Assembly: GCA_030829545.1 (NCBI GenBank)
Contig: JAURAI010000002.1
Coordinates: forward strand, 128,260 to 192,259
Length of the DNA: 64,000 bases
Direction: 5' to 3'
Source: Poseidonia sp.
GTDB taxonomy: Archaea > Thermoplasmatota > Poseidoniia > Poseidoniales > Poseidoniaceae
Below the pieces are notes generated by a model. It saw nothing but the letters and a program-made list of their open reading frames with translations. It made no database searches and was not told the DNA's origin. Position numbers and translations under genes: made by a program. Shown here piece by piece: positions 899 to 61,945 of the stretch; within the stretch, counting starts at the first letter, position 1, and each line of letters begins with the position of its first letter.

Positions 899-922
899 CG
901 TAGTTCACCCTCTTGAATCCGT

Positions 923-6058: not shown

Positions 6059-6186
6059 CCATTTTCTCTCCATTCTTTGGCACAAATCAGCGCACAGATG
6101 CGGAAGGAGGTAAGAACCGGGACGACTGGCCGAAAAAGAGTCACTTCGGGAGTGATATTCAAAACGAGACCACGGGTGGAACCAAC

Positions 6187-27606: not shown

Positions 27607-27668
27607 GTGCTTTCTGCCGATTCACATCAAGAGAAGTCTTGATGTTCTCCCGATACCGTGTCTATACC

Positions 27669-31160: not shown

Positions 31161-31207
31161 CACGATAACGGACATTCTCTTTTGTAGAAGGACATTCACC
31201 TCTGCCC

Positions 31208-34200
31208 ATGAACAGAGCCTCCATGAAGGCAATCCTCCTCGTCGCACTCTTCGTGATGACCTCAGCCTTGACCATGGTTGAATCATCCATTCAACTCGAA
31301 GATGGACCAGCAACAAGCGAAACACAAAGCGGTGCAATTAGAATCGTTGACGTCCCCACGTACCGGGTGGGCGATGAATGGGTATACGACACTAAATTTG
31401 ACGTTGCTCAACTTCTCGCTCAAGCCAATGTTTCTGCTTCGCTCAACACCCTCACCGGAGACACGGTCAACGAAGTGACCGATGTTTTCTATGCCACGGA
31501 TAACAATGGCGACACGGTCTTGGCGTATGAGATTGAAATTGATGGAAGTTTCTCATCTGGCAACAGTGGCGCCACCCTCGAAGGCGTCACCGGACGGTTG
31601 GAAATTGATTACGAAGGCGTTGATATTCTACGTGCTCGTGACCTTGCAACCATCACCAGCGACTTCACCCTTGATGTTAACTTCGCACCCTTGAACCTCG
31701 GTTTCCTATCTCAAAATTTGGGAATCGTGACCTTCGACAACACCTACACACCAGCCAAAGAGCGTCATGATTTCCCGCTGCGAAACGGAGACCAATGGTA
31801 CATGCCCTTCACGGCGGAAACTGAAGTCACAGGTTCCTCTGATTACTTTGACCCTTCTGAATTTGATTCGGAGGAATCCGAAAACAATTCGTGGCAGGTC
31901 GTCAAAAACGAGGCCCCTTCAGAAGACGGTGACACCCCTCAATACACAGGTTGTGACGATTCATACAAGATTGCAGAATGGAATGAAACCGGCGTGAATA
32001 CTGGATTCAACTGGTACTGCCCTGCGGTACGTGGAAGCGTATGGAATCGTATCATCAACTCGGCTGGATTTACCATCGACTGGATTCTCAAGACCTACAA
32101 TCCTGCCGATTCCAATAGCGTCGTGCCTGGTTCTTCACCGGGTGGCCGAAATACGCAGATCGAGGTCTATACGGCATACTCTGCTACCCTGCCCAATTCA
32201 ATGGAGCAAATCTCAATCGATTATTCCGTTGCTGGCTCCCCATCAATCCCGATCAAAAATACAAACCTTCAGCTGAGGTATGAACTTGCGGATACGATTC
32301 ACAATCCAACCACCGACAATAACGGGCTGGCCCAAGTTCCACTCAACGTCTCTTCAGAGGTTGATGACACACCAAGCAGTGATGATCACACCAGCAACGG
32401 CGTGGTCGTCTATGACCCAGCCAACAAAATCGTTGGTGCCACGACCGTTGTCGTCGATTTGAGCGTCGTTGGCGTCGACCTTGTAGCCCAAGCAAATTCA
32501 GCCATTGTTGAACGAACCAGAGGTGGCGTCACAACAACCCTCAGTTCATCAATCGGATTCAATGCCCTTCCCGGCGACACCATTTCCTTCTCGCTCCCTG
32601 CTCAAAACCGTGGGGTGCTGACTTCACCACCGACCTACATGGAAATTCAGACGCCTGATGAAGCGACCGTCCGTGCTATGATTCCAGCCATTGAGCCCTA
32701 CAGCGAGCAGCGCGTACAGGTGAATTGGTCGGTCCCTGAAACCTTGGCTATCGGATTCAAAACCATGCAATTTACCGTTGACCCAGACCAAAATGTCACC
32801 GCCGATGCAAACCGAAGCAATAACGAGGCAACACTCTCGATTTTCATCGGACGTTCGCCCACAGGAGATTTGATTGTTGATGAAGGAAAATACACCTTCG
32901 AGAATGTCACCTTGAACGCTACTGCCAGTTTTGACGAGGACGGAGGTTCAGTCGATTGTGTCTTTGAAATTGAATCGCGAATCGGCCTGGTCGACATCAT
33001 CGAAGCACCCGGCTGTTGGACCCAGTGGAACTGGTCAAACAGTGGCTCTTGGACGGTGAAAGTTCTCGTGGTCGACGAGGAATTGGATACCGACGAAGTT
33101 CAATTGGAAGTTATTGTCCTCAACCGTCCGCCTGCATTCAACCTCACCCATCCCGAATCGGTCTTTGTTGAATCCAAAGTGACCGTTGAGGCCATCGATA
33201 TTGTTGATATTGACACCTCGTCTCCCTCTGGCCAACAAGTATCCATAGCGTGGCCAACCCTTGACTGCGACGAAGGGTTGACCCAACCGACCTGTACCTT
33301 TACGCCGATGTTCGAAGGACCTGTTAACATCACTGCGGTTGCGACGGACGATGATGGTGCCAAAACGACCGCCTACTCATCCATCGATGTTCTCAACATT
33401 GCTCCGACCTTGGACTATCCACAACTGTGGAAAGGTGGAGAGGAACTTCTTCTCGATGAGAATGGTACGTGGCATTTGAATGAAGATGAGGTTGCCCTCT
33501 TGCGCGTCACGGCAGCGGATTCTGCCAACGATGCAGGTACACTCATCATCGAATGGCACCCATCTGCTGAATATCAAGATTGGACCATTACCAGCGTTGG
33601 CATCAGTTCCTCTGAGGCCGTTTCATGGCCAACTTCTGGCCCGCATATCATCCAAGTGCGCGCCATTGATGCAGACGGTGCGAGTTCTGACCCGCTCCAA
33701 GCCAACATCATGATTCACAACGTTGCTCCAACCGTAACGGGTCTTCCAATCTTTGAAGCCGTTGAGGAGGATGCAGAATACACCCTTTCAGTGACGGCCG
33801 AAGACACCGCATCAGACCAAGATTCCCTTGAGATTTGCTGGGACTTTGACCGCAATGTGGACGTTGATAATGACGGCATGGGAGACAATGACTGCGAAAT
33901 GGAAGGTCTGTCGGTCTCAACGTCATGGTCAACTGTCGGCATGCAATGGATCACGGTGACCGTGACCGATGACGACGGTGAAAGCGCACAGCAATCAATG
34001 AACATAAGCGTCGTCAACAGAGCTCCTCTTCCTGAAATCTCTTACCAGAATCTCGCTCTTGAAAACTTGACAGAAGGTGACAACCTTACCATCAGCGGAT
34101 TTGAAACCATTGACTCTCCAAGCGATAAAGCCATTCTCACATATCAGTGGGACGCATCTCACCTCGACACTGACCTCGACGGAAGTAAGGTCGGTGACGT

Positions 34201-34795
34201 TGATTACTCAGGCCCAACTTGGATTATTGAAGACCTTCCTGCCGGCACCTGGACCATCGTTCTCACCGTCATCGATGACGATGGTGAATCAGGACAAAGC
34301 GAGATTACAATTCTTGTCGCACAAGCACCAGCAGAAGGCTTCTTTGAAACCATCAGTTCCTCGGTTGGAACCACGACTGCAATGATCATCGTTGTCTTGG
34401 GCTTTGTGATTGTTGGACTCGTCGTCTTCTTGCTCTTTACTCGCCAAGGCAGTTCAAAAGACGAAGACTTCTCATCATTTGGACAACAGATGAACAGTGG
34501 TTTGCCTGCCATGGAGATGGCTCAGCCTGCTGCCGCACCTACCGTGGCACCTGCAGTCGTATCTGCCCCCGCAGCCGAACCTGCACTTCAACAAGAAGTC
34601 TACAACAGTGGACCTCCCTTGCCGGCGAGTGGCTTACCTGCGGGCTGGACAATGGAACAGTGGAACTACTACGGTGAGCAGTGGTTTGCCGCGAATCAGC
34701 CAGCACCAGCGCCTGTTCAACCCATAGTTTCACAAACACCTCCTACCCCTGCCTCAGACCAGTTGAGCTCGTTATTGGACGATTTAGACTTCTGA
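31208..34795 (+). CDS. Giant surface protein paralog B, a tandem duplicate of the upstream gene.
   Basis: Colinear with paralog A: VPTYRVGDEWVY vs VPTWRIGDRWIY, DFPLRNGDQW vs DFPLRIDERW, WYCPAVRG vs WYCPEVRN, and the same repeat modules. TM helix MIIVVLGFVIVGLVVFLLF. The tail contains GLPAGWTMEQWNYYGEQW. Confidence 0.85.
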   Translation: MNRASMKAILLVALFVMTSALTMVESSIQLEDGPATSETQSGAIRIVDVPTYRVGDEWVYDTKFDVAQLLAQANVSASLNTLTGDTVNEVTDVFYATDNNGDTVLAYEIEIDGSFSSGNSGATLEGVTGRLEIDYEGVDILRARDLATITSDFTLDVNFAPLNLGFLSQNLGIVTFDNTYTPAKERHDFPLRNGDQWYMPFTAETEVTGSSDYFDPSEFDSEESENNSWQVVKNEAPSEDGDTPQYTGCDDSYKIAEWNETGVNTGFNWYCPAVRGSVWNRIINSAGFTIDWILKTYNPADSNSVVPGSSPGGRNTQIEVYTAYSATLPNSMEQISIDYSVAGSPSIPIKNTNLQLRYELADTIHNPTTDNNGLAQVPLNVSSEVDDTPSSDDHTSNGVVVYDPANKIVGATTVVVDLSVVGVDLVAQANSAIVERTRGGVTTTLSSSIGFNALPGDTISFSLPAQNRGVLTSPPTYMEIQTPDEATVRAMIPAIEPYSEQRVQVNWSVPETLAIGFKTMQFTVDPDQNVTADANRSNNEATLSIFIGRSPTGDLIVDEGKYTFENVTLNATASFDEDGGSVDCVFEIESRIGLVDIIEAPGCWTQWNWSNSGSWTVKVLVVDEELDTDEVQLEVIVLNRPPAFNLTHPESVFVESKVTVEAIDIVDIDTSSPSGQQVSIAWPTLDCDEGLTQPTCTFTPMFEGPVNITAVATDDDGAKTTAYSSIDVLNIAPTLDYPQLWKGGEELLLDENGTWHLNEDEVALLRVTAADSANDAGTLIIEWHPSAEYQDWTITSVGISSSEAVSWPTSGPHIIQVRAIDADGASSDPLQANIMIHNVAPTVTGLPIFEAVEEDAEYTLSVTAEDTASDQDSLEICWDFDRNVDVDNDGMGDNDCEMEGLSVSTSWSTVGMQWITVTVTDDDGESAQQSMNISVVNRAPLPEISYQNLALENLTEGDNLTISGFETIDSPSDKAILTYQWDASHLDTDLDGSKVGDVDYSGPTWIIEDLPAGTWTIVLTVIDDDGESGQSEITILVAQAPAEGFFETISSSVGTTTAMIIVVLGFVIVGLVVFLLFTRQGSSKDEDFSSFGQQMNSGLPAMEMAQPAAAPTVAPAVVSAPAAEPALQQEVYNSGPPLPASGLPAGWTMEQWNYYGEQWFAANQPAPAPVQPIVSQTPPTPASDQLSSLLDDLDF

Positions 34796-38587: not shown

Positions 38588-41500
38588 TCACAAATCGAAG
38601 CCATCGCCACAGACGGGGCACTTGATGCGCTTCAACATCAAATCCTTCACGCTAAAGCTCGCTTGGCATGATGGGCATTTTGCTTCACGTTTCAGATCAG
38701 GAAGCGGCAAAGGTACAGGTTGAATTGGAGTGACTGGAAGAGGAAGTCCTTCGAGCGGTGGCAATTGTCCAGGTAAAGGAAGAGGGGGCAAGCCTTGCTG
38801 AAGGGCGGCTGTCATTTCGCCAATTTCTCGTTGTTGCTTGCGTTGCATACGGCGCTCAAGACGTGCATTCCCTTCACCATCCTCGAGTTTCTTTTCAAGT
38901 TCTGCTGCAAGCGTATCTTCTTCTTCAACGATCACCGCTACCGCAGATTCACTGACGGTCAATTCATCTTCATTCTCGTCGATCAGGAGCAGAGGGCCTT
39001 CGTCCTGTTCAATATTGACCATGATTTCAATGCTGTCCGTTTCCTCTGAGAGCAAGGCTTCCAATCCTTCAAGTTCCGTGTGAGAGCGTCGTACGCTGAC
39101 AATGACGAACACGAGGAAGGATACGAAGACGATTGCCATGACGCCCAACAAGCGTATCTTGAATTCATCGGAATCACCCGGTAGGTACTCAAGAAGCGTC
39201 TCAAAGAGCCCCGGCGATTCAATGACGTCTTGGGAGCCGCTCAAGGAAACAACCTTGCTCAGCGAATAAGAACCAGCGGGTGTCATGGTGCACACAACGG
39301 TATCATCTTCCATCGTACCGATACCGAATGTAAAGCCTACGAAGAGCATGTTCGAGAGCCCTGGAGTTGCTTCACCGTCTTCATTGGCGATAAGACCCAT
39401 ACGCGAGACTGGTCCATAGACGTTAATCTCGTCGTGATAGAGGTAGACACCGCCTTTCTGATCAGACAAGGCGATTGTACTGACACCAGGGGTTGAAGTA
39501 TGTATCACGTTATCATTTGACCAAATAGAATCTGTTGAGATGGTAGCAACAGCCGCTGTTTTCCCTTGCCCTTCAATCCAAGCCCCAATCAATCGGTCAG
39601 AACGATCGTCAACAAGGACATTGAGTTGCGGCGAGGTGGCTTCATCACCGATTGAATACTGGAAACTCCAGGAGGGTTCGTTCAATGCTCCGTGCGTGTA
39701 CATGAGGCCAACGCGTTCCACTCCCGTAACGTCATCCCTGTATTCTTGATAGAAGATATGCAGGTATTCTTCGCCCAAACCAACAGCAAGTGGTTGGGCA
39801 TCTGCTGGTTGAATGTCAATGTCCACGAGGACTGTCAAAGCATTGCCCCAGGAGGCACCGCGATCAGGTGTGGGAGAAGAGAGGACAAAGATGGAAGTGA
39901 GATCTTGCCAAGACCCTCCTGTTGACAAATCCCGATGGTATCCTGCGAGGACCATGGTTCCGTCATATTGATCAAATGTGAAGCCGTAATAGGAGCCTTC
40001 AGAGAGTTTGAGTGCCGGCATGTGGTAGTGTTTTGGCGTAGTTTTTCCAGCAGCCGAAATTGAGGTCATGGCGATATCGCTCAGTATGTAGCCTTCCAGA
40101 TTCAAAGTACGTCGCGTCCATGCGAGTTGAACAAGTCCGTCATCGCGTTCATGAACGGCGAGTTCTCCACCCCACGATTCTTCAATGACAACGCCCCCTG
40201 GCATGCTGAGGGTTGAGGTGATGGTACGGGCGTGCAATTCACCATCAATGGTCGTGAATAGAAGCCCACCGTCGTCAAGACCAACGAATTCCACAGGCGT
40301 TTCACCGGTTGCCAAGGAGATGGGTACTTTGGCGCCTACATACAAATCCACTACCGTCACGTTGAACCGTAATTGACTGTGTTCAAGCTCAACACCTGAG
40401 CCACTGAGTACCGCTCTGTAGGCGATATGTCCAGGGTCGTAAACCACATCTGCAAACTTGGTGAATGCATAACCCGAGGTGGTACTTGAGCCAGGAACGA
40501 GGTTGAGTGTTTTGTCGTCAAGACGGCTCCAGCTGCCGACATCATCCAGCCAACGTTCAAGTCCTATGTTGAGACTCGTGGCGTCGGTTTGGCCGAGGTT
40601 GTCAAGCCTGATTTGGATGTCGAAAGGAGTACCAGGAGTTGGTATTTCGGGTTGGGTTCGCGATGAGCCTGCTAGGAAACGAAGCATGGGTTCAACCGGC
40701 CGAGGTTGGATTTCGAAACTGAAGGTGTAGACGTTGTTGTCTCTGTCAGCATCATCGTATTGCTGGGAAGGGTCGAGTGACAAGGTCACTTCATGTGTTC
40801 CGGCTTCAGTCGCCCACCAGTACAGCGTTGCTCGAACGCTCTCGCCTTCTTCAAGCGAGGTGACCTTACCTTCAGACGGATAGGTTGCGGAATCATCACC
40901 GGGACCATCGAGCCGCAGATAGACTTCGTTGGCGTCAAGGTCGCCAATGTTGCGAACACCAAAGCGTACTTCCAAAACGGTTCCAGCAACAGCACTGTTG
41001 ACCGGCAGGCCTCCATCAAACACTTCAACTGAGCCTGAAAAGGTAAAATCAGGTGCTGCTGGTAGGTTATCCACTTCGTAGGTCCGCCGCAGCACCTCAC
41101 TGGATACTTCTGATGCATTGATTGTGCGCACGCTGATTCGGTGTGAACCATCGGCAACCGATGCAGAATCCCACGTAAAGGACCAGGCTTGAATCCCTTC
41201 ATCTTGCTCCGAGAGTGTGTCGCCAAGAACCCAGTCGCCGTTGTCAATTTTATATTCAACACGATCGTGTTCTGGACCTTCTACGATTCCGCTGAAATCA
41301 ACGAAACCAACCAGGTTCGTTCCGATACCAGGTTCTGAAATCGAGATGGATAAGCGAGTGAGGTGGACGACTCGAACATCGATTGACGAGGCATCTCCAG
41401 CGGCATTGAGCGCACGAGCATAGACCAAGGTGTAGGCTTCATCTTGGTCAATCCAATCATCATCGACCATGAGGTCGTAATACCACTCTTCAACGGTACC

Positions 41501-43471
41501 GTCTGTGTCCAACCAATTGGTAAGTTCAGTACTGTCTCCATCGTCGTAAAACTGCTCGATTTTCACTTGGACTTCGAGGTAGTCGTTCTCACCCACATCC
41601 GTCTCCCCTTCAATTGACAGCGTATTGCCAGAGAGGTAGAGGGATTGGTTCGTTGGTGAGGACATCGTGACATCGTCTCCCAAACCGTCACCTCCGGGAG
41701 GTGGGTCAACGATGATGCCTCCGCCGCCCTCAAAGGGAGTACAAGCTCGGTCGAGCACACGGTCAAGGGCACAAGATGCGTCAACCAGGCCAAAGCCCCA
41801 TTTGTCGTTCCATCGATTGGACACGCCCGGTTCAGAGGCTGAACCCCGTTGTTCAGATGAATTCCTGAGAATATTACGAATCTCCTCGGGTTCAAGGGTA
41901 TCATCTGCATGGAGGAGTGTGGCAACGATGCCTGAGACCAGAGGGGTAGCCATGCTGGTTCCGTCTTTGGATTCATAATCATTGTCAGCAAGAGGACGTT
42001 CCGGTTGTCCGGGGAAGGACGGTCCTGTTGCAGCGGATGCTGAGGTGATACCGGTCCCGTAGGAGGTGATATCGGGCTTCAATTCGTCCCACTCGTCATC
42101 GTCCCCGTCATCAACACGCGGGCCATAATTCGTGTAAGAAGCAAGGATATCATCGGTCCGATTGACAGAATTTCGGTCGTCCACCGCACCGATAGAAATT
42201 GCTCCATCAGCGCTTGCAGGGGACGGGACACGCTTGCTGCCATCATTCCCCATGGCTACGATACAAACGATGCCGGCATCACGAGCGTCGTTGACAAGGC
42301 GTGCTTCGGCCCCTGAACCGTTATCCCCTTCATCGTCTGGATTGAGCGGTGAACTGAATGAACCAAAGGACATGGAAGCGACATCAATGCCTCGGCTTGA
42401 ATCATTATTTCCCCAATCAGTATTTTTGTTGTTGATCATCCATTGAATACCATTGAGGGAGGCTTGCGAATTGGTACCGCCAGAATCTGTAAGGACCTTG
42501 ATGTCAACCAAAAAAGCACCCATCCCCGAACCCGTATGAACACGGTTTGAACCTCCGGTTCCAAGAGCCGTTGCCGCAACGTGTGTGCCGTGGCCTTGAC
42601 CGTCGTCAGGGTCGACCGTGCCGTCTGGATTTGAGGCAGAGGACGTGGCATCAAATCCTGCAACCCACTTTTGGTCGTTGTAACTGGTCGCATCGCTATC
42701 GGGCTCATCATCGATGTCATCGAAATCATTCAGCGCTCGGTGTTCATTGTCCACACCTGTATCCAAGATAGCGATGACGACCCCCTCTCCAGTGTAGCCG
42801 CGTTCGTAGGTGCTGGCCGTATAATCCTCGGAAGGCATGGACCGCGTTGCTTCGGTGGCTACTCCGTTGAAAGGAATCATTACGTTTTGCATCTCAATGA
42901 CCACGACCGCTTCCAAATGATAAATGTCCATCAGTGCGCTCACAGGCACTTTGTCAACCACCAGGGCATCGATTGAATCCATCACCTGAAACCAAGCATT
43001 TCCTTCTTCACCGACCCATCCGTGGTTGTCAAGAACACTTCGAAGTGCTTCGATTTCGTATTCACCGGGATGCCATGCATAATCAACGATGATAGCGACT
43101 GTCTTTCGCCCGTCCGGCCCGATGATGGCAGTTGTTGAAACTGACGGTTCTCCTGCGAGTACGCGTTGAAGACGGTCATCCATTCCATTCCAATCCAAGT
43201 CGGGGCCGTAGCCTAACCACCACATCGGAGGTTCAGCAGAGGCATGCTCTCCTCGCTCAATGAGGCGTGTAGGGCGTTCACACAAGGCTTCGTCACAAAG
43301 CAATGGAGGTAAGCCATCAATCAAAATTGGAGCCTCATAGTCCGATGAAGGCTCCTGCAATGGTTGCTGAGCAAGAACCATGCCGCTCATGTCGGCAAAG
43401 AGGAAGAGAATGGACAAAAGAAGGGCACCAATATGCAATGACGTGCGCTGATTTCCAACCATCATGTCCAC
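38588..43471 (-). CDS. Giant (1627 aa) membrane-anchored subtilisin-family (S8) serine protease with a cytoplasmic coiled/Pro-rich/zinc-ribbon tail.
   Basis: Signal peptide. Catalytic triad contexts VIAILDTGVD, GHGTHVAATA and GTSMATPLVSG. Long beta-rich ectodomain, TM helix LLGVMAIVFVSFLVFVIVSV followed by RR, an acidic segment, GLPPLPLPGQLPPLEGLPLP..., and a terminal CPSC-x16-CPVC. Confidence 0.9.
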   Translation of the reverse strand: MDMMVGNQRTSLHIGALLLSILFLFADMSGMVLAQQPLQEPSSDYEAPILIDGLPPLLCDEALCERPTRLIERGEHASAEPPMWWLGYGPDLDWNGMDDRLQRVLAGEPSVSTTAIIGPDGRKTVAIIVDYAWHPGEYEIEALRSVLDNHGWVGEEGNAWFQVMDSIDALVVDKVPVSALMDIYHLEAVVVIEMQNVMIPFNGVATEATRSMPSEDYTASTYERGYTGEGVVIAILDTGVDNEHRALNDFDDIDDEPDSDATSYNDQKWVAGFDATSSASNPDGTVDPDDGQGHGTHVAATALGTGGSNRVHTGSGMGAFLVDIKVLTDSGGTNSQASLNGIQWMINNKNTDWGNNDSSRGIDVASMSFGSFSSPLNPDDEGDNGSGAEARLVNDARDAGIVCIVAMGNDGSKRVPSPASADGAISIGAVDDRNSVNRTDDILASYTNYGPRVDDGDDDEWDELKPDITSYGTGITSASAATGPSFPGQPERPLADNDYESKDGTSMATPLVSGIVATLLHADDTLEPEEIRNILRNSSEQRGSASEPGVSNRWNDKWGFGLVDASCALDRVLDRACTPFEGGGGIIVDPPPGGDGLGDDVTMSSPTNQSLYLSGNTLSIEGETDVGENDYLEVQVKIEQFYDDGDSTELTNWLDTDGTVEEWYYDLMVDDDWIDQDEAYTLVYARALNAAGDASSIDVRVVHLTRLSISISEPGIGTNLVGFVDFSGIVEGPEHDRVEYKIDNGDWVLGDTLSEQDEGIQAWSFTWDSASVADGSHRISVRTINASEVSSEVLRRTYEVDNLPAAPDFTFSGSVEVFDGGLPVNSAVAGTVLEVRFGVRNIGDLDANEVYLRLDGPGDDSATYPSEGKVTSLEEGESVRATLYWWATEAGTHEVTLSLDPSQQYDDADRDNNVYTFSFEIQPRPVEPMLRFLAGSSRTQPEIPTPGTPFDIQIRLDNLGQTDATSLNIGLERWLDDVGSWSRLDDKTLNLVPGSSTTSGYAFTKFADVVYDPGHIAYRAVLSGSGVELEHSQLRFNVTVVDLYVGAKVPISLATGETPVEFVGLDDGGLLFTTIDGELHARTITSTLSMPGGVVIEESWGGELAVHERDDGLVQLAWTRRTLNLEGYILSDIAMTSISAAGKTTPKHYHMPALKLSEGSYYGFTFDQYDGTMVLAGYHRDLSTGGSWQDLTSIFVLSSPTPDRGASWGNALTVLVDIDIQPADAQPLAVGLGEEYLHIFYQEYRDDVTGVERVGLMYTHGALNEPSWSFQYSIGDEATSPQLNVLVDDRSDRLIGAWIEGQGKTAAVATISTDSIWSNDNVIHTSTPGVSTIALSDQKGGVYLYHDEINVYGPVSRMGLIANEDGEATPGLSNMLFVGFTFGIGTMEDDTVVCTMTPAGSYSLSKVVSLSGSQDVIESPGLFETLLEYLPGDSDEFKIRLLGVMAIVFVSFLVFVIVSVRRSHTELEGLEALLSEETDSIEIMVNIEQDEGPLLLIDENEDELTVSESAVAVIVEEEDTLAAELEKKLEDGEGNARLERRMQRKQQREIGEMTAALQQGLPPLPLPGQLPPLEGLPLPVTPIQPVPLPLPDLKREAKCPSCQASFSVKDLMLKRIKCPVCGDGFDL

Positions 43472-53948: not shown

Positions 53949-55001
53949 ATGGGAATCACTGCGATGATACCGGACATGACCATTGGGCAGTTAACCCAAG
54001 AGGCATCCAGTCGGTGGGGTGAAATTTGGGACCCAAACGCAACCCGGATGCGCATTCTCTTACTGTGCCCGCGTAAAGAACGAAAAATGATGGAACTGCA
54101 CGGCGACATGGTTGAGCACGGCCAACCTGTGATGGCAGTCTTCCACCGCCCCAGAGCGGAAGCTCCTCTCCTCGAGGAGCAGGGTTTTGATACTCGGGCT
54201 GCTTCTTTCCAATTTGTTGATATTTCCACACCCGACCTCGGCCCGTGGATGCAACATATGGTTAGCAATGAAGGATGGATTCGTGGCTCGATTGAAATCG
54301 CATCAACGCCATTCTCTGTAGGATTGCCATCCCAACGACCCTTTGAAACCGAACGAACACTCTACTTCCGACACCCTTCACTGCCTGCGCTTGAGAGGTA
54401 TTACCTGCCTTTCCCTGTGGAATCGCTCCCTGGAAAGTGCTTTGTCAGCCTACCGCGAAGAGCCGCTGCTGAAATGGCTCGCCAACAAGCGGAAGTCTTG
54501 GGAATCGGTCGTTTGGAAAAGCCCGCCCCTGAACCTGAACCTGCTCCACCAGAGCCACCTGCACCAAAGGTTGAGCAGCAACCTGCTTCCGTTGAAACAC
54601 CCGAGGAACCTGCCACTCCGGCAACTGAACCTGCTGAAAAAACCGAAGAAATCGCTGTTCCGTTGCCGCCCTCTGCGAGCCAACAGGACGACTCAATGAA
54701 CGAAGCCAATGCTGAGCAGATACCACTCCCTACTCAAGCAGAGGCGCCACTTTCTGAAGAAGGAACTTCACACGTGCCTCAAGAGGATATCGCACTTCCC
54801 GAGCCGACCCCCGACCCAGAGCCGGACCGAAGTGACCTTGAAATGGATTTACGCGCCTTCTTCCAAGAACTGATCGATGCTGGTGTAGAACCAAGCGAAT
54901 TCATGGATGATGCACGTTGGGAAGACCTCAACGAACGCGCCCTCGCTGAACATCTCGAAACATGGCCCATCTTGTTGGAAATGACTGCCATGGGCCAATA
55001 A
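53949..55001 (+). CDS. Hypothetical protein: a ~190-aa globular N-domain, a Pro/Glu-rich linker and an acidic helical C-domain.
   Basis: A long ORF that matches the direction of the flanking genes. Linker PAPEPEPAPPEPPAPKVEQQPAS... No recognisable catalytic motif. Confidence 0.5.
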   Translation: MGITAMIPDMTIGQLTQEASSRWGEIWDPNATRMRILLLCPRKERKMMELHGDMVEHGQPVMAVFHRPRAEAPLLEEQGFDTRAASFQFVDISTPDLGPWMQHMVSNEGWIRGSIEIASTPFSVGLPSQRPFETERTLYFRHPSLPALERYYLPFPVESLPGKCFVSLPRRAAAEMARQQAEVLGIGRLEKPAPEPEPAPPEPPAPKVEQQPASVETPEEPATPATEPAEKTEEIAVPLPPSASQQDDSMNEANAEQIPLPTQAEAPLSEEGTSHVPQEDIALPEPTPDPEPDRSDLEMDLRAFFQELIDAGVEPSEFMDDARWEDLNERALAEHLETWPILLEMTAMGQ

Positions 55002-55042: not shown

Positions 55043-55231
55043 ATGGGATTTTGCATCAATTGTGGACAGCAACACCATGATGGCACTCGGTTTTGCCGCT
55101 TTTGTGGCAACCAACAACCTGGTGAAGCCTTGCTCCAACGCCTTCGAATTGAAGCACAGCAAATTCATGCCATTCGTCTCCAGATGCAGGCTCAACAACA
55201 AGGCAATCCCTATCAGCAACGTCGCTGGTGA
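55043..55231 (+). CDS. Small zinc-ribbon protein with a Gln-rich helix.
   Basis: MGFCINCGQQHHDGTRFCRFCG (CxxC-x10-CxxC). Its stop overlaps the downstream start (GTGA). Confidence 0.5.
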   Translation: MGFCINCGQQHHDGTRFCRFCGNQQPGEALLQRLRIEAQQIHAIRLQMQAQQQGNPYQQRRW

Positions 55232-55887
55232 AGGGCATGCGTCCCAAACATTTGGCGATTCAGCTCTCTCGATTAGCACCTCATCCATGCTTGCGTGTTG
55301 AACTGGAACAGTACGCTACTGAGGGTGACCTCGCAGCGTATTGGATGCTTGCGGTTGACCAAACCGATGGTTTCGATGGACTGCACGTTGTTGATTTAGG
55401 AAGCGGAAATGGCATTTTAGGAATTGCTGCCCTGCTCTTAGGGGCACGGAAGGTGACCTTTGTGGAAACTGACAAGGACGCTCTGGTGGTGTTGCATTCC
55501 AACATCAACAGTCTGGACCACCCACTGGCTGGTCAGGCCGAAGTAATAGAAGCACACATTGGCCAAGACGAACTTGACCTCTCCTCGGTTGACTTGATTG
55601 TCATGAATCCTCCTTGGGGTGTTCAATCGGCCCAGGCTGACCGCCCTTTTTTGGAACTCGCTTTCAATTCCAATGCCTCGGCAATTCACATCTTGCACAG
55701 CGAGAAAGCAGCACATATTGAGCCCCTTGCAAAAGACAATGGATGGCATTGGGAGCACATCATACGTACCGTCTTTCGATTACCACCGACCTACATGCAC
55801 CACAGCCAACGACGCGGAGATACCGAGGTCATGTGCTGGCGTTTTCACCGACCCGGTGATGCCCGCTTGCCTCAAGATGAATCCTAG
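55228..55887 (+). CDS. N6-adenine-type SAM methyltransferase, COG2263/METTL5-like predicted RNA methylase.
   Basis: VVDLGSGNGILGIAA (SAM motif I) and IVMNPPWG (NPPW motif IV). Start at the GTG at 55228 or the ATG at 55237. Confidence 0.75.
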   Translation: MKGMRPKHLAIQLSRLAPHPCLRVELEQYATEGDLAAYWMLAVDQTDGFDGLHVVDLGSGNGILGIAALLLGARKVTFVETDKDALVVLHSNINSLDHPLAGQAEVIEAHIGQDELDLSSVDLIVMNPPWGVQSAQADRPFLELAFNSNASAIHILHSEKAAHIEPLAKDNGWHWEHIIRTVFRLPPTYMHHSQRRGDTEVMCWRFHRPGDARLPQDES

Positions 55888-55945: not shown

Positions 55946-57400
55946 GTGCGACTCACACCGAGCCACGTCGCTAAAGGAATGATTACAATGACGGCGAGCC
56001 TCGTCACCCCGGGAAGCATCATCGGCCAGGAAGGCCAACACGAACACGGCGAAGGAACCTCAGTTCACGGCGGAAACATCATCTCAACGGTGGTTGGATA
56101 CGTCCATGTCAACGAGGGCACCATCAATGTCACAGCCTCAAAGCCCATCGTTTCACCTGTGGTAGGCGACACGGTTCTTTGCGAAATTGTCAAACTCAAT
56201 GAAAAGAATGGCGAGGCCATGGTTCTGTGCATTGAAGGAAAACCCGGTTCCATCCAACCCCAGCACCTCTACGGGCAATTCTTCGTCACTGGTTTGGTTG
56301 ACCGATTCATGCATCAAACTTCTGACGCACTCCGCCGTCGCGACGTTTGCCGCGCAGTGATTAAGGAGGTTGAACCGGTCGTCCGACTCGATTTCCGAGA
56401 ACGTGATGACTGTGGCGTTCTTCACGCTATTTGCCCACCTTGTGGAGACACCCTTGAAGCCCACCTTGATGGAGACTGGAACGTTCTCTGCCCTACATGT
56501 GGCTACCAATCTTACCGCGCTCTTGCTGACAATTTTGGAGCAGGTTGGGCTGAACTTGACCAAGGATCAAGCAGCCTCAACAATGCTGGAAAGCGCTGGG
56601 GAGCAGCAGCCGAAGCCATGTTCGCTAAGGGACCCGCAGGCCGTGCCACCTTCATCGCAGCAGATGTTCGTGAAGACGGTCGTGAGCGAACTTACTTCAG
56701 ATTTGAAGGCCAAGCCGGCGATGGACGTCGAGGTCAACAACGTGCAGCACCAGGCACACGACTCTTCGTGGGCGGACTGCCTCGTGAGATCGGAACTGAT
56801 GAATTGCGTGACCTCTTTACCAAGCACGGCGATATGACCGACTGTATCGTACTCACTGACGACGCTGGAGTCAATCGAGGCTTCGGCTTCGTCACCTATG
56901 CAGACAAGGCCATGGCTGAAGCAGCCATCAGCGCTCTTGACGGACACCGCATCAATGGACGACGCATCGGTGTTCGAGATGCTGATGATGATGAAAAGAA
57001 AGGCAACAAGAAGGAGCGCAAGGAGCCTCAAGGATTGAAACTCTACATTGGCAATCTGCCCTTCACAAGCACCAGTGAACAACTCAACGAGATGGTCGGG
57101 GCTCACGCTACCGTGAACGAAGTAATTCTCGCCACCGGACCGGGTGGCAAACCCAAGGGCTTTGGCTTTGTATTCATCCAAGAAAAGGACAAGGGCGAAG
57201 CGGTCGTCAGTGCGCTCAACAACAGCGAAATTGATGGACGACGCATCAAGGTCGATATCGCCAAACCCAAAGGCAGCAAGGGTGGAGACCGTGGCCGAGA
57301 CGGGAATAAGGGTGGAAAGTCCTCCCGAGAAATGCAAGCTCTCCGAGAAGAAGAGGGTGGAAAGAAGCGAAATCGCCGCTCTCGTCCAAAGAAGGATTGA
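55946..57400 (+). CDS. csl4: Exosome cap protein Csl4 (S1 domain plus Zn ribbon) fused to two RRM domains and an Arg/Gly/Lys-rich tail.
   Basis: Residues ~15-200 are colinear with archaeal Csl4 (PGSIIG..., GDTVLCEIVKLN, CGVLHAICPPCG...LCPTCG...DNFGAGW). RRM1 has RNP2 LFVGGL and RNP1 RGFGFVTY. RRM2 has LYIGNL and KGFGFVFI. The tail is GSKGGDRGRDGNKGGK...KKRNRRSRPKKD. The true start may be an ATG at 55979 or 55988. Confidence 0.85.
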   Translation: MRLTPSHVAKGMITMTASLVTPGSIIGQEGQHEHGEGTSVHGGNIISTVVGYVHVNEGTINVTASKPIVSPVVGDTVLCEIVKLNEKNGEAMVLCIEGKPGSIQPQHLYGQFFVTGLVDRFMHQTSDALRRRDVCRAVIKEVEPVVRLDFRERDDCGVLHAICPPCGDTLEAHLDGDWNVLCPTCGYQSYRALADNFGAGWAELDQGSSSLNNAGKRWGAAAEAMFAKGPAGRATFIAADVREDGRERTYFRFEGQAGDGRRGQQRAAPGTRLFVGGLPREIGTDELRDLFTKHGDMTDCIVLTDDAGVNRGFGFVTYADKAMAEAAISALDGHRINGRRIGVRDADDDEKKGNKKERKEPQGLKLYIGNLPFTSTSEQLNEMVGAHATVNEVILATGPGGKPKGFGFVFIQEKDKGEAVVSALNNSEIDGRRIKVDIAKPKGSKGGDRGRDGNKGGKSSREMQALREEEGGKKRNRRSRPKKD

Positions 57401-57425
57401 AGGGGCACAGTGCCTCGCTTCCTCC

Positions 57426-59216
57426 ATGGTTGAACCCTCCGAGCCGACGTGGTTGGTATTGGACGGGTATGAAGATGAACCTGCAGCCTTCGGCGTACCG
57501 CCTTATGTTGGCTTTCACATCCGCTATGTCTGCGGCGTATTGGAGCAACACAAGGTCCCGTACACCTACATGACCATCGATCAGTTCAGGCAACAGAAAA
57601 AGCAAGACCCTGAGGGTATGAAGCGATGGATTGGTGCTCAACTCGGTTGCATTTGCATTGCGGGTGCCGTGGTGCCAGGGAAATATTTGCGAGGCGCTCC
57701 GATTTCGCTGCGAGAAACTCAGGATTTGATTCGAAGCCTTCCCGCTGGAATGCCAGCCCTGTTTGGAGGTTGGGCCATTCGAGGGTGGAAGCAACAAGGA
57801 TGGACGCCTCTTCGAGCCAATCTCTTTCTCGCCGTTCAAGATACGGATGCAACCTTGAATCACTATCTCACCAAACAAGAATGGAAACATCAACGACGTA
57901 CTGCGGAACAGTGGACTGCATGGGCTCACGCCGGTGCTAGCAGTCAAGCGGTGACCCTGCATCCCGATCGAGCAACATCCGAACGCCCTGGGCCACTCAC
58001 CTACGAGGTTGAAGTCTACCAGGGTTGTGTGCGCTACAGACGCGGTTGTAAGTTCTGCATCGAACCCAAAAAGGGCGTTCCGATTTGGCGTACGCCTGAA
58101 GACATCATCCAAGAAGTCAAACTTGCTCATGATTCTGGAGTTGAGCACGTACGTTTGGGGGGCATGACCGATACCTACACCTACATGGCGGAGGGTGTGA
58201 AAGAATTGGAATACCCGATTCCGAACCCAGAGCCAATCGCCAAACTCCTTCACGGTTTACGGGATGATGAACGGCTTGGAATTCTTCACACCGACAACGG
58301 CAACCCCTCAATCATCGCCGAGAATCTGGAACCCTCCGAGGAGATTACCAAAACGCTCGTTGAGACTCTTTCCGACGGCGCCGTCCTGTCCTTTGGTTTG
58401 GAATCGGCCGACCCTAGCGTTCACGAAGCGAACTGGCTCAACTGTGACCCTGCCCAACTCAAGACGGCGATTCGCCTCATCAACAAATACGGGAGCGTGA
58501 GGGGTGAGCGAGGCTTACCCAAACTGCTTCCAGGGCTCAATTTCATCGCAGGGCTCAACGGAGAGACCGAAGCAACCTATGGAATGAACATGGCGTTATT
58601 GCGAGACATTCGCAGTGAGGGGTTACTGCTGCGCCGCATCAACATTCGTCAGGTGGAAGGTGAAGGATTCCAGGAGATCCCATCAGAAGCATTCACGACC
58701 TTCAAAACCGAATGTCGGGAAGAAATTGACCGTCCCTTGCTCGAAGAATTATTTCCCCTCGGCGGAACCCTACGGGACATTCATTGGGAAGCACACGACG
58801 GACGAACTCGCCTCCCAGCACACAGCGAAAAACAGCATACAGAACAGGCAGTCCACGGGAAAGCAGGGATTACGTTTGGTCGCCAAATTGGCGCTTATCC
58901 AATCCTCGTTGGTGTGAAATATAAAATTCCACTCGAAACTCAATCGGACATTATCGTCACCGGACATGGTGCACGCTCTATTACTGGGGTTGAACTTGGC
59001 ATCAGCCCAACAAGCATCACGGAAAAACAGCTCGCAGCAATTCCCGGTATCGGAGATAAAACAGCATGGGCCCTCATCAGTGCTCGTGTACGTGCGCAAC
59101 GAAAGAAGGGCGACCCCTTCCCCTATGAGGGAGTCCAAGACTGGTTTAAAGCTGCAAAAACACCCTACTTAGAATCCTTTGAACCGTTCTTTTCGCCATC
59201 TATTCACTTTGAATAG
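57426..59216 (+). CDS. Radical SAM-superfamily Fe-S enzyme (COG1031-like) with a C-terminal helix-hairpin-helix.
   Basis: Cys cluster GCVRYRRGCKFC, and an HhH LAAIPGIGDKTAWALISA near the C-terminus. The start at MVEPSEP (57426) is 26 nt after the csl4-RRM stop. The ORF-track 5' extension from 57144 overlaps csl4 and is rejected. Confidence 0.7.
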   Translation: MVEPSEPTWLVLDGYEDEPAAFGVPPYVGFHIRYVCGVLEQHKVPYTYMTIDQFRQQKKQDPEGMKRWIGAQLGCICIAGAVVPGKYLRGAPISLRETQDLIRSLPAGMPALFGGWAIRGWKQQGWTPLRANLFLAVQDTDATLNHYLTKQEWKHQRRTAEQWTAWAHAGASSQAVTLHPDRATSERPGPLTYEVEVYQGCVRYRRGCKFCIEPKKGVPIWRTPEDIIQEVKLAHDSGVEHVRLGGMTDTYTYMAEGVKELEYPIPNPEPIAKLLHGLRDDERLGILHTDNGNPSIIAENLEPSEEITKTLVETLSDGAVLSFGLESADPSVHEANWLNCDPAQLKTAIRLINKYGSVRGERGLPKLLPGLNFIAGLNGETEATYGMNMALLRDIRSEGLLLRRINIRQVEGEGFQEIPSEAFTTFKTECREEIDRPLLEELFPLGGTLRDIHWEAHDGRTRLPAHSEKQHTEQAVHGKAGITFGRQIGAYPILVGVKYKIPLETQSDIIVTGHGARSITGVELGISPTSITEKQLAAIPGIGDKTAWALISARVRAQRKKGDPFPYEGVQDWFKAAKTPYLESFEPFFSPSIHFE

Positions 59217-59281: not shown

Positions 59282-61945
59282 ATGCGGAGAGGCATGACCA
59301 ACCGTACCGCCTATGGATTCGCCCTTCTCCTCCTCGTGCAAGCGATGTCTGCTGCTCTTTACGTCCTGCCAACAGAATACGAACAGAATGACTGGCAGGG
59401 ACCCGTTTTTGAAAGTGGAGCACGTTCAAATAATTCGAGTTCAGGTTGCGGTTACGACGTTAATTATACCTCGCTGTATACCAATGCACCGGCCTACGTC
59501 CTCTCAACGAGTACGGTCAGCGTTTGGATCAATACATATTGTGACCTCTTGAACACCCCGATGTACCTTACTGCCTCTCTGGCAAATCAAAACAACGGAT
59601 CTACGTATGGCGTTGCAAACGCATCATACAACGGCAGCAACGTATCTTTCAGCAGCAATTGGAGTATCCCCGCCTCCACATTAGGGGTCGGCAATTATAC
59701 GCTAACGGCCACATTGCAGTATTATGATGGTTCAACTTGGACAACGATTGAAACGGACACACACAATTTCTCAATCATCGCCCCAGTCACAAATCCGTGT
59801 GGAGTTGACCAAAACTCTGCCTCCATCTATGCCTACTCACACTCAACAGGCTACCAACTCGGTTCTAATTTCACAGGAGCCATCTCAACATATTGTTCCA
59901 TCACCAACGCTACCATGGTGCTTGATTGGACCATTCGTTCCCTGACGACCAACGCATCCATCGATAGTGGTTCCTTCAACTGGACCGGGGTCAATACGTC
60001 CGTTGGGCACAATGTTACGTCGACTGCACTCGCATCCATGGGAGTGGGCAACTACAGCTTTGAGGCCACGTTGAGTTGGTACAACAACTCTTCAATGGCG
60101 TGGGAAGTACTTGATATCGATTCGTATGCCTTCTTCGTTTACAACAATACGAACAGCGGGCCCGGTAGCCTTGGTTGCGGTTATGACCTCAACTATACCG
60201 ACCTGTATGCATATGCGCCCTACTACGGAGTAGTGAACCAATCCATTGACACCACGATGTACGTACAGTGTCCTGTTTACAACGCATCAATGTTCCTCAA
60301 CTACTGGATTTACGATGCGAGTAACACCACCTTGGATTCAGGAAATTATTCGTGGACGGCTTCGACCAATCAGACCTGGCATTATTGGAATGCTACGTCA
60401 TTAGCAGCGGGGAATTATATCTTCCATGTTGAACTCTATTCAAACGGCAGTTATGTTACCAGCGACAGCGATGGATTCACCGTCATGAATAACAGCACCG
60501 GGAACAATACTGGAGGAAACGGTCAGGTGTACGTTGACATCGATCATTCCGGCTACGTGTACGAGCATCCGAACGGAACTGAGGTGTGGGCTTCCGGTTC
60601 CGATGTGTACGTTGAGTTCACCAGCGGAAACCTGACGGTTGGCGAGAACTACCAACTCATTTGGAACCTTTCGGATTCAACATGGAATGCCGGTGTCTAT
60701 GCGTATGACTGGAACATTAACTGGAATGCAACCTCAACCACCAGCATCGAAAACAGCACCATCAGCGGATTGCCCGATGGCGTGTATTACTTCCATGCCA
60801 CCCTGGTGAACCAAGGTTCGCATGTGGCCACTGACATGACCATGATTCAGGTCGGGAACAATACTGGTGGTAACAACACTGGTGGTAACAACACTGGCGG
60901 AAACAACACTGGCGGAAACAACACTGGAAACAACAGCGTGCACAACGTTGCACATTGCTTGCACCTCAGGAACATCAGCGTTGATTCTTCGTACTATGTC
61001 TCTGTGGACCTCGAGAACACTTGCAGCACAGACATCAATTATCCTGGCATCAATGCCTCAACCAATGATCCGGGCGTATCAGGCCTCTCTGATACTTGGT
61101 GGTATCTTCTTTGGGCTAACGGCACGTACAACTCAGGTTGGCAATTATCATTCAATCAATCGGTTCAGAATAATACGTTGATTACGTTGAATTTCAATGC
61201 CACGATTCTCAATTGTGGACCGAATGGTTACCATGCTTGCCCGAATTCAATGAATTCAAGTTCATCATACCAGTTCACTTACATCACTGCAAGCGGAAAC
61301 AGCACCGGTGGCAACAACACCGGCGGCAACAACACCGGCGGCAACAACACTGGTAACAATACCGGCGGTAACAACACTGGCGGCAACAACACTGGCGGTA
61401 ACAATACCGGCAACAACACTGGTAACAATACCGGTGGCAACAATACAATCCTCGATGCAGACGGTGATGGAGTGCTCGATGCAGATGACCTCTGCCCGAA
61501 CTCAACCCCCGGCGTGAGTGTTGATTCAACCGGTTGCGAGGCAAGTGTTCAACCCGTGAACAATGCTCCTGAAGTGACCAACGTCATCATTACACCTCTG
61601 ATCGCTACCGTGGACGATACGCTCAGTTGTGGTTATTCAACCACCGACTCAGACGGTGATGCAGTGACCACAATCGTCACATGGGCCGTCAATGGTAGCA
61701 TAATCTCCACCGGTTCGGACACCCTCACTGGTGGTTTCGGAGTCGGCCAAACCGTCACCTGCACGGTGATTGCAAGCGATGGTGCAGCCTCAAGTTCACC
61801 ATTTGTCTCATCGACCATCATTCTCCCATCAGGTTCTGATGAAGTCGTTGAGGACGCGAGTGGCCTTTTGCCATCACTGAGCATGATGGGGACATTGGTC
61901 GCCATCGCCTTCGGCGTAGGCCTCAGCCGTCGCCAAGATGATTGA
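59282..61945 (+). CDS. Heavily N-glycosylation-sequon-rich surface protein (possible S-layer or cell-surface glycoprotein) with a C-terminal anchor.
   Basis: Signal MTNRTAYGFALLLLVQAMSA. Repeated ~100-aa modules begin GCGYD(V/L)NYT. By eye there are well over 50 N-x-S/T sequons. Two (G)GNNT arrays. A Ca-binding-type DADGDGVLDADDLCPNS. The terminal TM helix GTLVAIAFGVGL is followed by SRRQDD. Confidence 0.8.
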   Translation: MRRGMTNRTAYGFALLLLVQAMSAALYVLPTEYEQNDWQGPVFESGARSNNSSSGCGYDVNYTSLYTNAPAYVLSTSTVSVWINTYCDLLNTPMYLTASLANQNNGSTYGVANASYNGSNVSFSSNWSIPASTLGVGNYTLTATLQYYDGSTWTTIETDTHNFSIIAPVTNPCGVDQNSASIYAYSHSTGYQLGSNFTGAISTYCSITNATMVLDWTIRSLTTNASIDSGSFNWTGVNTSVGHNVTSTALASMGVGNYSFEATLSWYNNSSMAWEVLDIDSYAFFVYNNTNSGPGSLGCGYDLNYTDLYAYAPYYGVVNQSIDTTMYVQCPVYNASMFLNYWIYDASNTTLDSGNYSWTASTNQTWHYWNATSLAAGNYIFHVELYSNGSYVTSDSDGFTVMNNSTGNNTGGNGQVYVDIDHSGYVYEHPNGTEVWASGSDVYVEFTSGNLTVGENYQLIWNLSDSTWNAGVYAYDWNINWNATSTTSIENSTISGLPDGVYYFHATLVNQGSHVATDMTMIQVGNNTGGNNTGGNNTGGNNTGGNNTGNNSVHNVAHCLHLRNISVDSSYYVSVDLENTCSTDINYPGINASTNDPGVSGLSDTWWYLLWANGTYNSGWQLSFNQSVQNNTLITLNFNATILNCGPNGYHACPNSMNSSSSYQFTYITASGNSTGGNNTGGNNTGGNNTGNNTGGNNTGGNNTGGNNTGNNTGNNTGGNNTILDADGDGVLDADDLCPNSTPGVSVDSTGCEASVQPVNNAPEVTNVIITPLIATVDDTLSCGYSTTDSDGDAVTTIVTWAVNGSIISTGSDTLTGGFGVGQTVTCTVIASDGAASSSPFVSSTIILPSGSDEVVEDASGLLPSLSMMGTLVAIAFGVGLSRRQDD
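60854..60938 (+). repeat. In-frame 15-nt tandem repeat (~5.5 units) encoding GGNNT sequon units.
   Basis: gggaacaatactggt / ggtaacaacactggt / ggtaacaacactggc / ggaaacaacactggc / ggaaacaacactgga ... read directly from the sequence. Confidence 0.9.
61294..61446 (+). repeat. In-frame 15/12-nt tandem repeat (~11 units) encoding (G)GNNT sequon units.
   Basis: ggcaacaacaccggc repeated with synonymous variation, interspersed with 12-nt aacaataccggc-type units. Encodes GNSTGGNNTGGNNTGGNNTGNNTGGNNTGGNNTGGNNTGNNTGNNTGGNNT. Confidence 0.9.

Follow-up and report, generated by a model that had tools for sequence, protein, structure and literature searches.

In a contig of the archaeon Poseidonia sp. (Poseidoniales, Poseidoniaceae; GenBank assembly GCA_030829545.1, contig JAURAI010000002.1, positions 128,260 to 192,259 of the forward strand), we have found that the gene for the exosome cap protein Csl4 is fused in frame to a region encoding two RNA recognition motifs (RRMs). 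The fusion gene, designated csl4-RRM, occupies 55988..57400 on the plus strand of this stretch of 64,000 nucleotides (nt), which is called the window below. All features that could be tested here place its product in the Csl4 family, and the fusion is conserved in the Poseidoniaceae. The protein is probably a genuine subunit of the exosome cap with built-in RNA-recruiting arms, for which we infer binding both to the exosome ring and to RNA.

The open reading frame (ORF) at 55946-57400 (+) contains no internal stop and is closed by TGA at 57398-57400. Direct reading of the sequence gives three candidate starts, i.e., ATG 55988 (470 amino acids, aa), ATG 55979 (473 aa) and GTG 55946 (484 codons). 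An earlier note on this DNA had reported one uninterrupted ORF of 484 codons, and this holds when the frame is counted from its first in-frame GTG. The ORF is thus as the note described it, but the start at GTG 55946 is not the probable one: since homologues open with MTASLVTPG, translation probably begins at ATG 55988, or at ATG 55979, which some gene callers use. Residue numbers below refer to the 473-aa form unless marked otherwise, and Pfam and NCBIfam matches to the 484-aa numbering. An antisense ORF of 286 aa opposite the RRM region (56567-57427, -) is most likely a shadow ORF.

Csl4 core, RRMs and terminal segments

The N-terminal part of the protein has the complete domain set of Csl4, all encoded on the plus strand. 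The N-terminal domain, which is the ring anchor in canonical Csl4, lies at 56000..56146, aligns with Archaeoglobus fulgidus Csl4 and is recognized by Pfam ECR1_N (PF14382; residues 19-55 of the 484-aa form, E-value 7.4e-9, 35.7 bits with the cut-off at 27). It is followed by the S1/OB domain (56147..56398), colinear with A. fulgidus Csl4 (PDB chain 2ba1_A) by both profile and Foldseek comparison, and by the zinc-ribbon domain (56399..56554), which has the CPPC...CPTC pattern, ends in DNFGAGW and aligns with the C-terminus of the A. fulgidus protein. Within the fusion family, P11, G12, G24, G26 and G40 of the N-terminal domain are invariant, and the zinc-ribbon cysteines C152, C155, C171 and C174 are invariant or nearly so.

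Searches of several kinds agree on the family assignment. The NCBIfam equivalog of Csl4, PRK09521 (NF034126; arCOG00676), matches residues 19-197 along positions 2-178 of its 180, with a score of 90.4 bits that passes the cut-off of 90 marginally. When the single protein was used to search PDB sequences, A. fulgidus Csl4 (2ba1_A) was found at E 6.9e-13; a profile of the N-terminal part of the family matched the same chain end to end (positions 5-189 against 2-177 of 179) at E 5.8e-29, followed by human EXOSC1 at E 7.5e-11. An AlphaFold2 model of the N-terminal 233 aa has a predicted local distance difference test score (pLDDT) of 80.9 and a predicted template modelling score of 0.69, with the S1 domain as a beta barrel (pLDDT 85-94), and the top 17 PDB matches of this model in Foldseek are all Csl4 chains from archaeal, yeast, fungal and human exosomes. 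The claim of the earlier note that a complete Csl4 with N-terminal, S1 and zinc-ribbon domains is present in colinear order is therefore borne out by Pfam, NCBIfam, profile and structure comparisons, while the Pfam scan of the protein gave no separate match to the S1 or EXOSC1 family.

Directly after the zinc ribbon comes a segment that is specific to this family (56555..56683; LNNAGKRWGAAAEAMFAKGPAGRATFIAADVREDGR). In a comparison of mean identity and of the ratio of nonsynonymous to synonymous substitution rates (dN/dS) made region by region on 74 Poseidoniaceae sequences, this segment (residues 193-235, LDQGSSSLNNAGKRWGAAAEAMFAKGPAGRATFIAADVREDGR) is the best-conserved stretch in the whole protein, with 91% identity and a dN/dS of about 0.04; because synonymous sites are saturated among these sequences, dN/dS values are rough. 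Its motif is LNxxGKRW...E..F, of which W207 is invariant and N201, G204, R206, E212, R222 and D229 are nearly invariant in all architectural variants of the family, and AlphaFold2 models predict short helices within it (pLDDT 73-86). A profile search of PDB with the segment gave only matches at chance level (E >= 0.05) and no homologue. The earlier note had placed a linker of about 70 aa here; a stretch of such length does follow the zinc ribbon, but it is not a mere linker, since its first 43 residues or so are the most conserved of the protein. The behavior of a flexible spacer is confined to residues 226-254, and the Gly/Arg-containing spacer proper (56684..56752) has a pLDDT of 34-57 and differs in length and sequence among family members.

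The two RRMs are canonical. RRM1 (56753..56986) has the RNP2 motif LFVGGL and the RNP1 motif RGFGFVTY, and RRM2 (57032..57265) has LYIGNL and KGFGFVFI; they are joined by a Lys/Glu-rich linker (56987..57031) with 65% identity and a pLDDT below 50 at residues 339-347. Pfam RRM_1 (PF00076) matches in two stretches (E 2.6e-32, 110.9 bits against a cut-off of 20.7), one for each domain, and both domains are modelled by AlphaFold2 with the beta-alpha-beta-beta-alpha-beta topology of the RRM fold at a pLDDT of about 87-90. The RNP1 and RNP2 motifs of both RRMs are nearly invariant across the family, with their aromatic residues intact, so that the "two textbook RRMs" of the earlier note are confirmed. 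The full-length model has a pLDDT of 77.5, and Foldseek with this model returned a Csl4 match first and then the tandem-RRM proteins Sxl, HuD, HuR and hnRNP A1. In deeper members of the family, RRM1 and RRM2 of a single protein share 48-57% identity, a level equal to that between orthologous RRMs of different proteins. This suggests that the tandem RRMs may have arisen by internal duplication and not by import of a ready-made tandem module; as to where the RRM came from, by bacterial transfer or otherwise, PDB and NCBIfam scores do not discriminate.

The C-terminal region consists of three parts. A variable Gly/Arg/Lys tail (57266..57310; 41% identity) is followed by a conserved motif, GKSSREMQALREEE (57311..57355; S-R-E-x-x-A-x-R-E-E-G, 83% identity), and by a basic end, GGKKRNRRSRPKKD (57356..57397), with a net charge of +7. 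In the conserved motif, R450, E451, A454, E457 and E458 show little or no variation, even when variants with zinc fingers are included, and a helix at 449-458 is predicted with low confidence; the ...KKD ending is present in 74 of 75 Poseidoniaceae ORFs. The RGG tail proposed in the earlier note was not found: the protein has no RGG triplet, and in its place stand the Gly/Arg/Lys stretch, the acidic helix and the basic end. Neither the LNxxGKRW motif nor SREx2AxREEG occurs again in the flanking DNA. We regard these two conserved motifs as candidate docking or regulatory elements, and they provide concrete handles for experiments.

Conservation and architectural variants

The fusion was looked for in one genome per GTDB species with a four-sequence alignment as a query. 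A relative was found in 143 genomes, of which the best 80 were examined, and nearly all of these 80 are named Poseidonia, Poseidoniaceae or Poseidoniales or have a generic archaeal name. The ORF is uninterrupted, with a length of 455-488 aa, in all 75 species-representative loci whose contig reaches the stop codon, and the reference chromosome of Marine Group II (MG-II) published in 2012 (CM001443.1, locus L050) carries the intact fusion. Among database proteins, the nearest is 99% identical; the best 120 matches are 74-99% identical and 449-528 aa long, come from contigs of up to 2.37 Mb, and have RRM_1 in 120 of 120 cases and ECR1_N in all but one. In total, hundreds of independent assemblies hold the fusion, contigs of 2.0-2.4 Mb among them.

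For the relatives, the earlier note had raised the question of fused versus split genes, and the fusion proved intact. What looks like a split, the stand-alone RRM gene P0305 (115 aa), is a gene-calling artefact, because the DNA holds an intact fusion of 487 aa. At this locus (L170 2787-3134; likewise at L168 and L169), the third-party annotation of NCBI calls the last 115 aa alone, while the fusion ORF at L170 1671-3134 is intact.

Every module of the protein is under purifying selection. Mean identity is 56% for the N-terminal domain, 82% for S1, 82% for the zinc ribbon, 83% for RRM1 and 69% for RRM2.

To place the family among other Csl4 proteins, residues 1-259 were compared with 1.84 billion representative proteins, which gave 203 matches at E <= 1e-3. 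The extended fusion family comprises 11 full-length proteins of 387-487 aa (E 1e-112 to 1e-29) plus fragments, and a clear gap separates it (E <= 1e-29) from ordinary Csl4 of about 190 aa, which begin at about 1e-12. Most members of the fusion family have two RRMs and one further member has a single RRM. The cluster of the Thalassarchaeaceae (Marine Group IIb, MGIIb) has a treble-clef zinc finger (PF23477) and one RRM, and P0130 (L084 10001-11383, on a contig of 3.0 Mb) carries a pair of treble-clef zinc fingers with an extended region rich in RGG/GGR, has no RRM, and ends in the REEG motif. RGG triplets number 4 in P0126 and 10 in P0130. All variants keep the Csl4 core and the LNxxG(K/x)RW segment, and all except P0133 keep the C-terminal REEG motif. 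Because RRM, zinc finger and RGG region have been swapped while the Csl4 core and the motifs were kept, selection appears to act for a combination of Csl4 plus a generic RNA binder.

Two observations concern single family members or their relatives. P0133 (L081-L083; L081 10001-11314) has a zinc finger of the pattern CxxC-x17-CxxC, and the stop of the methyltransferase gene upstream overlaps with its start. In two other archaeal proteins, P0157 with 376 aa and P0216 with 497 aa, an otherwise ordinary Csl4 is preceded by a long N-terminal extension of low complexity, rich in Arg, Asp and Glu with RERDGERRD repeats, and accretion on Csl4 is thus not unique to the Poseidoniales.

Gene neighborhood and orthology

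Upstream of csl4-RRM, a gene for an S-adenosylmethionine (SAM)-dependent methyltransferase (MTS/PrmA/Cons_hypoth95-like by Pfam and NCBIfam) lies at 55228..55887 (+), with a gap of 100 nt to ATG 55988. Downstream, a gene for a radical-SAM protein with a C-terminal helix-hairpin-helix (Pfam Radical_SAM) lies at 57426..59216 (+), 25 nt past the csl4-RRM stop. The methyltransferase gene also precedes the fusion gene in MGIIb (L081-L083, with stop/start overlap) and the zinc-finger variant at L084, and the radical-SAM neighbor is found at L168, L169 and in the MGIIb metagenome-assembled genome (MAG) SIMO Bin 19-2. In the lineage of L168-L170, a GtrA-like ORF of 148 aa sits between methyltransferase and csl4.

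In Methanosarcina (L087), the methyltransferase gene stands before an ordinary csl4 and rpoL after it; a Thermoplasmata contig has a radical-SAM gene before csl4 and rpoL after it. In the window, rpoL is not downstream of csl4-RRM. Because the methyltransferase gene precedes ordinary csl4 in Methanosarcina as well, the fusion gene sits at the ancestral csl4 position. From this position, the gap among homologues and the core-gene lists described below, we argue that it is the orthologue of csl4 rather than a paralogue. The ten closest non-fusion matches that were checked, which are Csl4 of ordinary length or with N-terminal extensions, include none with a Poseidoniales name, and most have no taxon name. 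A second csl4 seemed to be hinted at by the Prokka name "csl4_1", but this suffix is meaningless, being attached to almost every gene of the table concerned.

The window is chromosomal DNA of a member of the Poseidoniaceae (Marine Group IIa, MGIIa), with which its genes for TBP, NMD3, a KaiC-like protein and aminoacyl-tRNA synthetases agree. Just upstream of the methyltransferase gene, an ORF of 62 aa (55043-55231, +) begins with a zinc-ribbon-like CxxC...CxxC (MGFCINCGQQHHDGTRFCRFCGNQ), and between the methyltransferase gene and that for aspartate-semialdehyde dehydrogenase lies an ORF of 350 aa (53949-55001, +) with a low-complexity middle rich in Pro, Glu and Ala and without a family match. 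A predicted surface protein of 887 aa (59282-61945, +) is rich in N-x-S/T sequons, with blocks of NNTGG repeats and a hydrophobic C-terminal anchor, and has no Pfam family; for an ORF of 1772 aa (923-6241, -), Pfam gave nothing at E <= 1e-5. A pair of neighboring proteins with PKD domains, each of about 1,180 aa (27639-34795, +), and a subtilase of 1627 aa (Peptidase_S8 plus CARDB; 38588-43471, -) are of the kind expected from the life of extracellular protein degradation that has been suggested for Marine Group II. No tRNA or Rfam match was found in the window, and scans for promoters and terminators gave about as many matches as shuffled sequence would, which makes them uninformative in an archaeon.

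Exosome core, function and comparison with known systems

The earlier note had offered two options, a cap subunit with a recruiting module and, for a lineage lacking the exosome core, a Csl4 turned to independent use. By published tables, which list the core, the premise of the latter fails. In the supplement of Tully (2019, PMC6336850), RRP4, RRP41 and RRP42 are given for 87% and 93% of the MAGs of the two MGII families and dnaG for 84% and 91%; rrp4, rrp41, rrp42 and dnaG are all listed as core genes of both families. In the supplement of Damashek et al. (2021, PMC9723583), SIMO Bin 19-2 has an operon of consecutive SDO1, rrp4, rrp41 and rrp42, with MG2_1082, MG2_1081 and MG2_1080 as seed orthologues by eggNOG, all three from the MG-II reference genome. 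In this MAG there is also a Csl4 gene that Pfam matches to RRM, flanked by the methyltransferase and radical-SAM genes, and its exosome genes and Csl4-RRM all have non-zero transcript coverage (PMC9723583). By these published data the exosome core is probably present in the lineage, and the option of a cap subunit with a recruiting module is favored.

Our own searches for the core gave the following results. None of rrp41, rrp42 and rrp4 was found in the window or in the 80 flanking loci, and tblastn with Rrp41 of Sulfolobus solfataricus and of Thermoplasma acidophilum gave no match in the window and the 80 csl4 loci. Among the 120 best matches of a homologue search with T. acidophilum Rrp41, Thermoplasmatales alone were present; a scan of viral contigs for Rrp41 gave nothing, and a scan of metagenome contigs listed 80 loci from soil, sediment and gut. 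One contig considered as a marine Rrp41 source (L161) turned out to belong to Methanomassiliicoccales; at 808-4484 it has a psmA-SBDS-rrp4-rrp41-rrp42 superoperon.

Csl4 itself (K07573) is absent from the MGII core-gene lists, and the core clusters include PABPC in MGIIa only, CIRBP and HNRNPL in MGIIb only, and RBM17 in both (PMC6336850, supplementary file 12). The PABPC, CIRBP and HNRNPL clusters probably represent the fusion gene, which would owe these wrong labels to its RRMs. Pangenome tables appear without Csl4 because annotation gives the gene such labels as "nucleolin", "PABPC" or "hypothetical" or reduces it to the 115-aa fragment. The cluster names also suggest that the Poseidoniales have several RRM proteins.

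As a genuine cap subunit, the protein would work as follows. The N-terminal 190 residues would fold as a normal Csl4 and cap the Rrp41/Rrp42 hexamer, either alone or mixed with Rrp4. Past the zinc ribbon, the short and highly conserved helical segment would probably be a docking or packing element, followed by the flexible spacer of about 25 residues, the two RRMs with intact RNP1/RNP2 aromatics and, at the chain end, the Gly/Arg/Lys stretch, the conserved acidic helix and the strongly basic end. Structures of archaeal exosomes have the entry pore lined by S1 domains, with the zinc ribbon at the periphery, and for this reason an extension from the C-terminus of the zinc ribbon should project outward around the pore. 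There the RRMs and the basic end would capture single-stranded RNA and keep it near the S1 pore, giving higher affinity and perhaps selectivity for degradation or reverse tailing, and up to three arms per complex would add avidity. Such an arrangement is consistent with experiments on S. solfataricus Csl4, whose N-terminal domain is the main anchor on the ring: when the N-terminal RNA-binding domain of DnaG was placed at the C-terminus of Csl4, the exosome still assembled, and it outpaced the Csl4 exosome, with or without DnaG, in degrading poly(A) and A-rich RNA (Hou et al., 2014; PMC4227792).

Several points weigh against the assignment as a cap subunit. The Csl4 moiety is strongly diverged, with 25-31% identity to other Csl4, in line with the marginal NCBIfam score. 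The N-terminal domain is the least conserved folded domain of the fusion (56%), whereas in 82 ordinary Csl4, which were picked by similarity to the query and are possibly a biased set, it is not (35%, 28% and 37% identity across the three domains). The presence of the exosome core is taken from two published supplementary tables. Since dnaG is retained, the appendage is not simply a replacement for DnaG, and it could in principle interfere with the docking of DnaG.

A bolder form of the recruiting idea, which we put forward tentatively as doubtful but possible, is that the protein is a one-polypeptide prokaryotic counterpart of the eukaryotic exosome adaptors, in which the arms would select RNA 3' ends (e.g., A- or U-rich ones) and the conserved motifs would dock partners, which may be DnaG, a helicase, a 5'-3' nuclease or the ribosome. 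If this is true, RNA decay would be coupled to translation or rRNA maturation in the most abundant archaea of the surface ocean.

It is unlikely, in our judgement, that the Csl4-like module and its RRMs have been repurposed as a free-standing RNA chaperone or regulator off the ring, leaving Rrp4 alone as the cap, as has been proposed for archaea without Csl4. The strong divergence of the Csl4 moiety would fit such a protein, as would the N-terminal anchor domain being the fastest-evolving folded domain, unlike in ordinary Csl4; but the anchor domain is still recognizable by Pfam and keeps its invariant Pro/Gly framework, the three Csl4 domains are colinear over about 180 residues in every variant, and published tables count the ring genes among the core of the order. 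Quite improbable is a role in ribosome biogenesis, with or without ring binding, in which the protein together with the flanking enzymes would mainly direct precursors of rRNA or tRNA towards modification and trimming at the 3' end; its RRMs and conserved motifs would then read pre-rRNA or ribosomal particles and not the general substrates of decay. The tight layout of methyltransferase, csl4 and radical-SAM genes (gaps of 100 nt and 25 nt, and a stop/start overlap in MGIIb) and the binding and tailing of rRNA by the archaeal exosome with DnaG, as reported in PMC4227792, speak for this role, but the methyltransferase neighbor is ancestral to ordinary csl4 and hence says nothing specific on the RRM appendage. 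An assembly join, missed stop or frameshift merging a normal csl4 with a downstream RRM gene, a worry of the earlier note, can practically be discarded, for although some database entries hold just a 115-aa "RNA-binding protein" corresponding to RRM2 plus tail (P0305), the contig behind this entry has an intact ORF of 487 aa, the ORF is uninterrupted in 75 of 75 species genomes and the fusion recurs in hundreds of independent assemblies with contigs of 2.0-2.4 Mb, and conservation within the protein is highest in the very segment at the junction.

A cap subunit with RNA-recruiting arms thus remains our preferred assignment. The Csl4-RRM architecture is in public databases since the MG-II genome of 2012, and some pipelines name both halves; the RRM appendage does not appear to have been described for the Csl4 family, and a search of 8 million full texts found no paper discussing a Csl4-RRM fusion. 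To our knowledge, archaea rarely have RRMs. Those of this family belong to the core, are conserved and can give way to zinc fingers, and we see in this a clear case of modular evolution in an RNA-decay machine.

Among known systems, archaeal Csl4 (A. fulgidus AF0206; PDB 2BA1, 3M7N) is the best match in sequence and structure, having the same three domains in the same order and length, a Cys4 zinc ribbon and a methyltransferase gene upstream; the fusion is longer at the C-terminus by about 280 residues, which comprise a conserved motif, the RRM pair and the tail, and differs further in its low identity of 25-31% and in lacking rpoL downstream. Tandem-RRM proteins (Sxl, HuD/HuR, hnRNP A1/A2B1, PABP RRM1-2 and chloroplast cS22) are the best matches for residues 259-429, and share with the fusion two canonical RRMs on a short linker. 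The hnRNP/nucleolin-like layout seen in the earlier note stands as far as the tandem RRMs go, but the RGG box is absent and the fusion falls far outside the eukaryotic RRM subfamilies, with NCBIfam scores of 56-85 bits against cut-offs of 231-497 (PABP 76 against 497, hnRNP-R/Q 68 against 318, ELAV 56 against 279 and SF-CC1 85 against 232).

The engineered Csl4-NT (Hou et al., 2014; PMC4227792) resembles the fusion in having an RNA-binding domain on the Csl4 C-terminus, but it is artificial and of another RNA-binding fold, and the RRM pair, the additional conserved motifs and the basic end are found in the natural protein alone. Archaeal DnaG, which binds Csl4 and prefers poly(A), likewise brings RNA-binding capacity to the Csl4 position of the cap, but as a separate polypeptide docking by its C-terminal domain; the Poseidoniales keep dnaG, so that their appendage is an addition. 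In the eukaryotic adaptors NEXT (the RRM of RBM7 with ZCCHC8) and TRAMP (the zinc knuckles of Air1/2), RRM or zinc modules bring RNA to the exosome cap. The same two kinds of module, RRM and zinc finger, are used in the Poseidoniales family, but those of NEXT and TRAMP belong to separate proteins bridged by Mtr4 whereas the module of the fusion is covalent, and the likeness is limited to generic folds. In bacterial PNPase, C-terminal KH and S1 domains are covalently attached to a phosphorolytic RNase PH ring around the entry pore; there, the binders are on the ring subunit and are KH and S1, not RRM. Exosomes of other archaea gain selectivity through DnaG and Rrp4, and those of eukaryotes through separate adaptor complexes; with a cap that bears covalent RRMs, nature would have made an experiment of its own on the ways in which substrate selectivity is gained.

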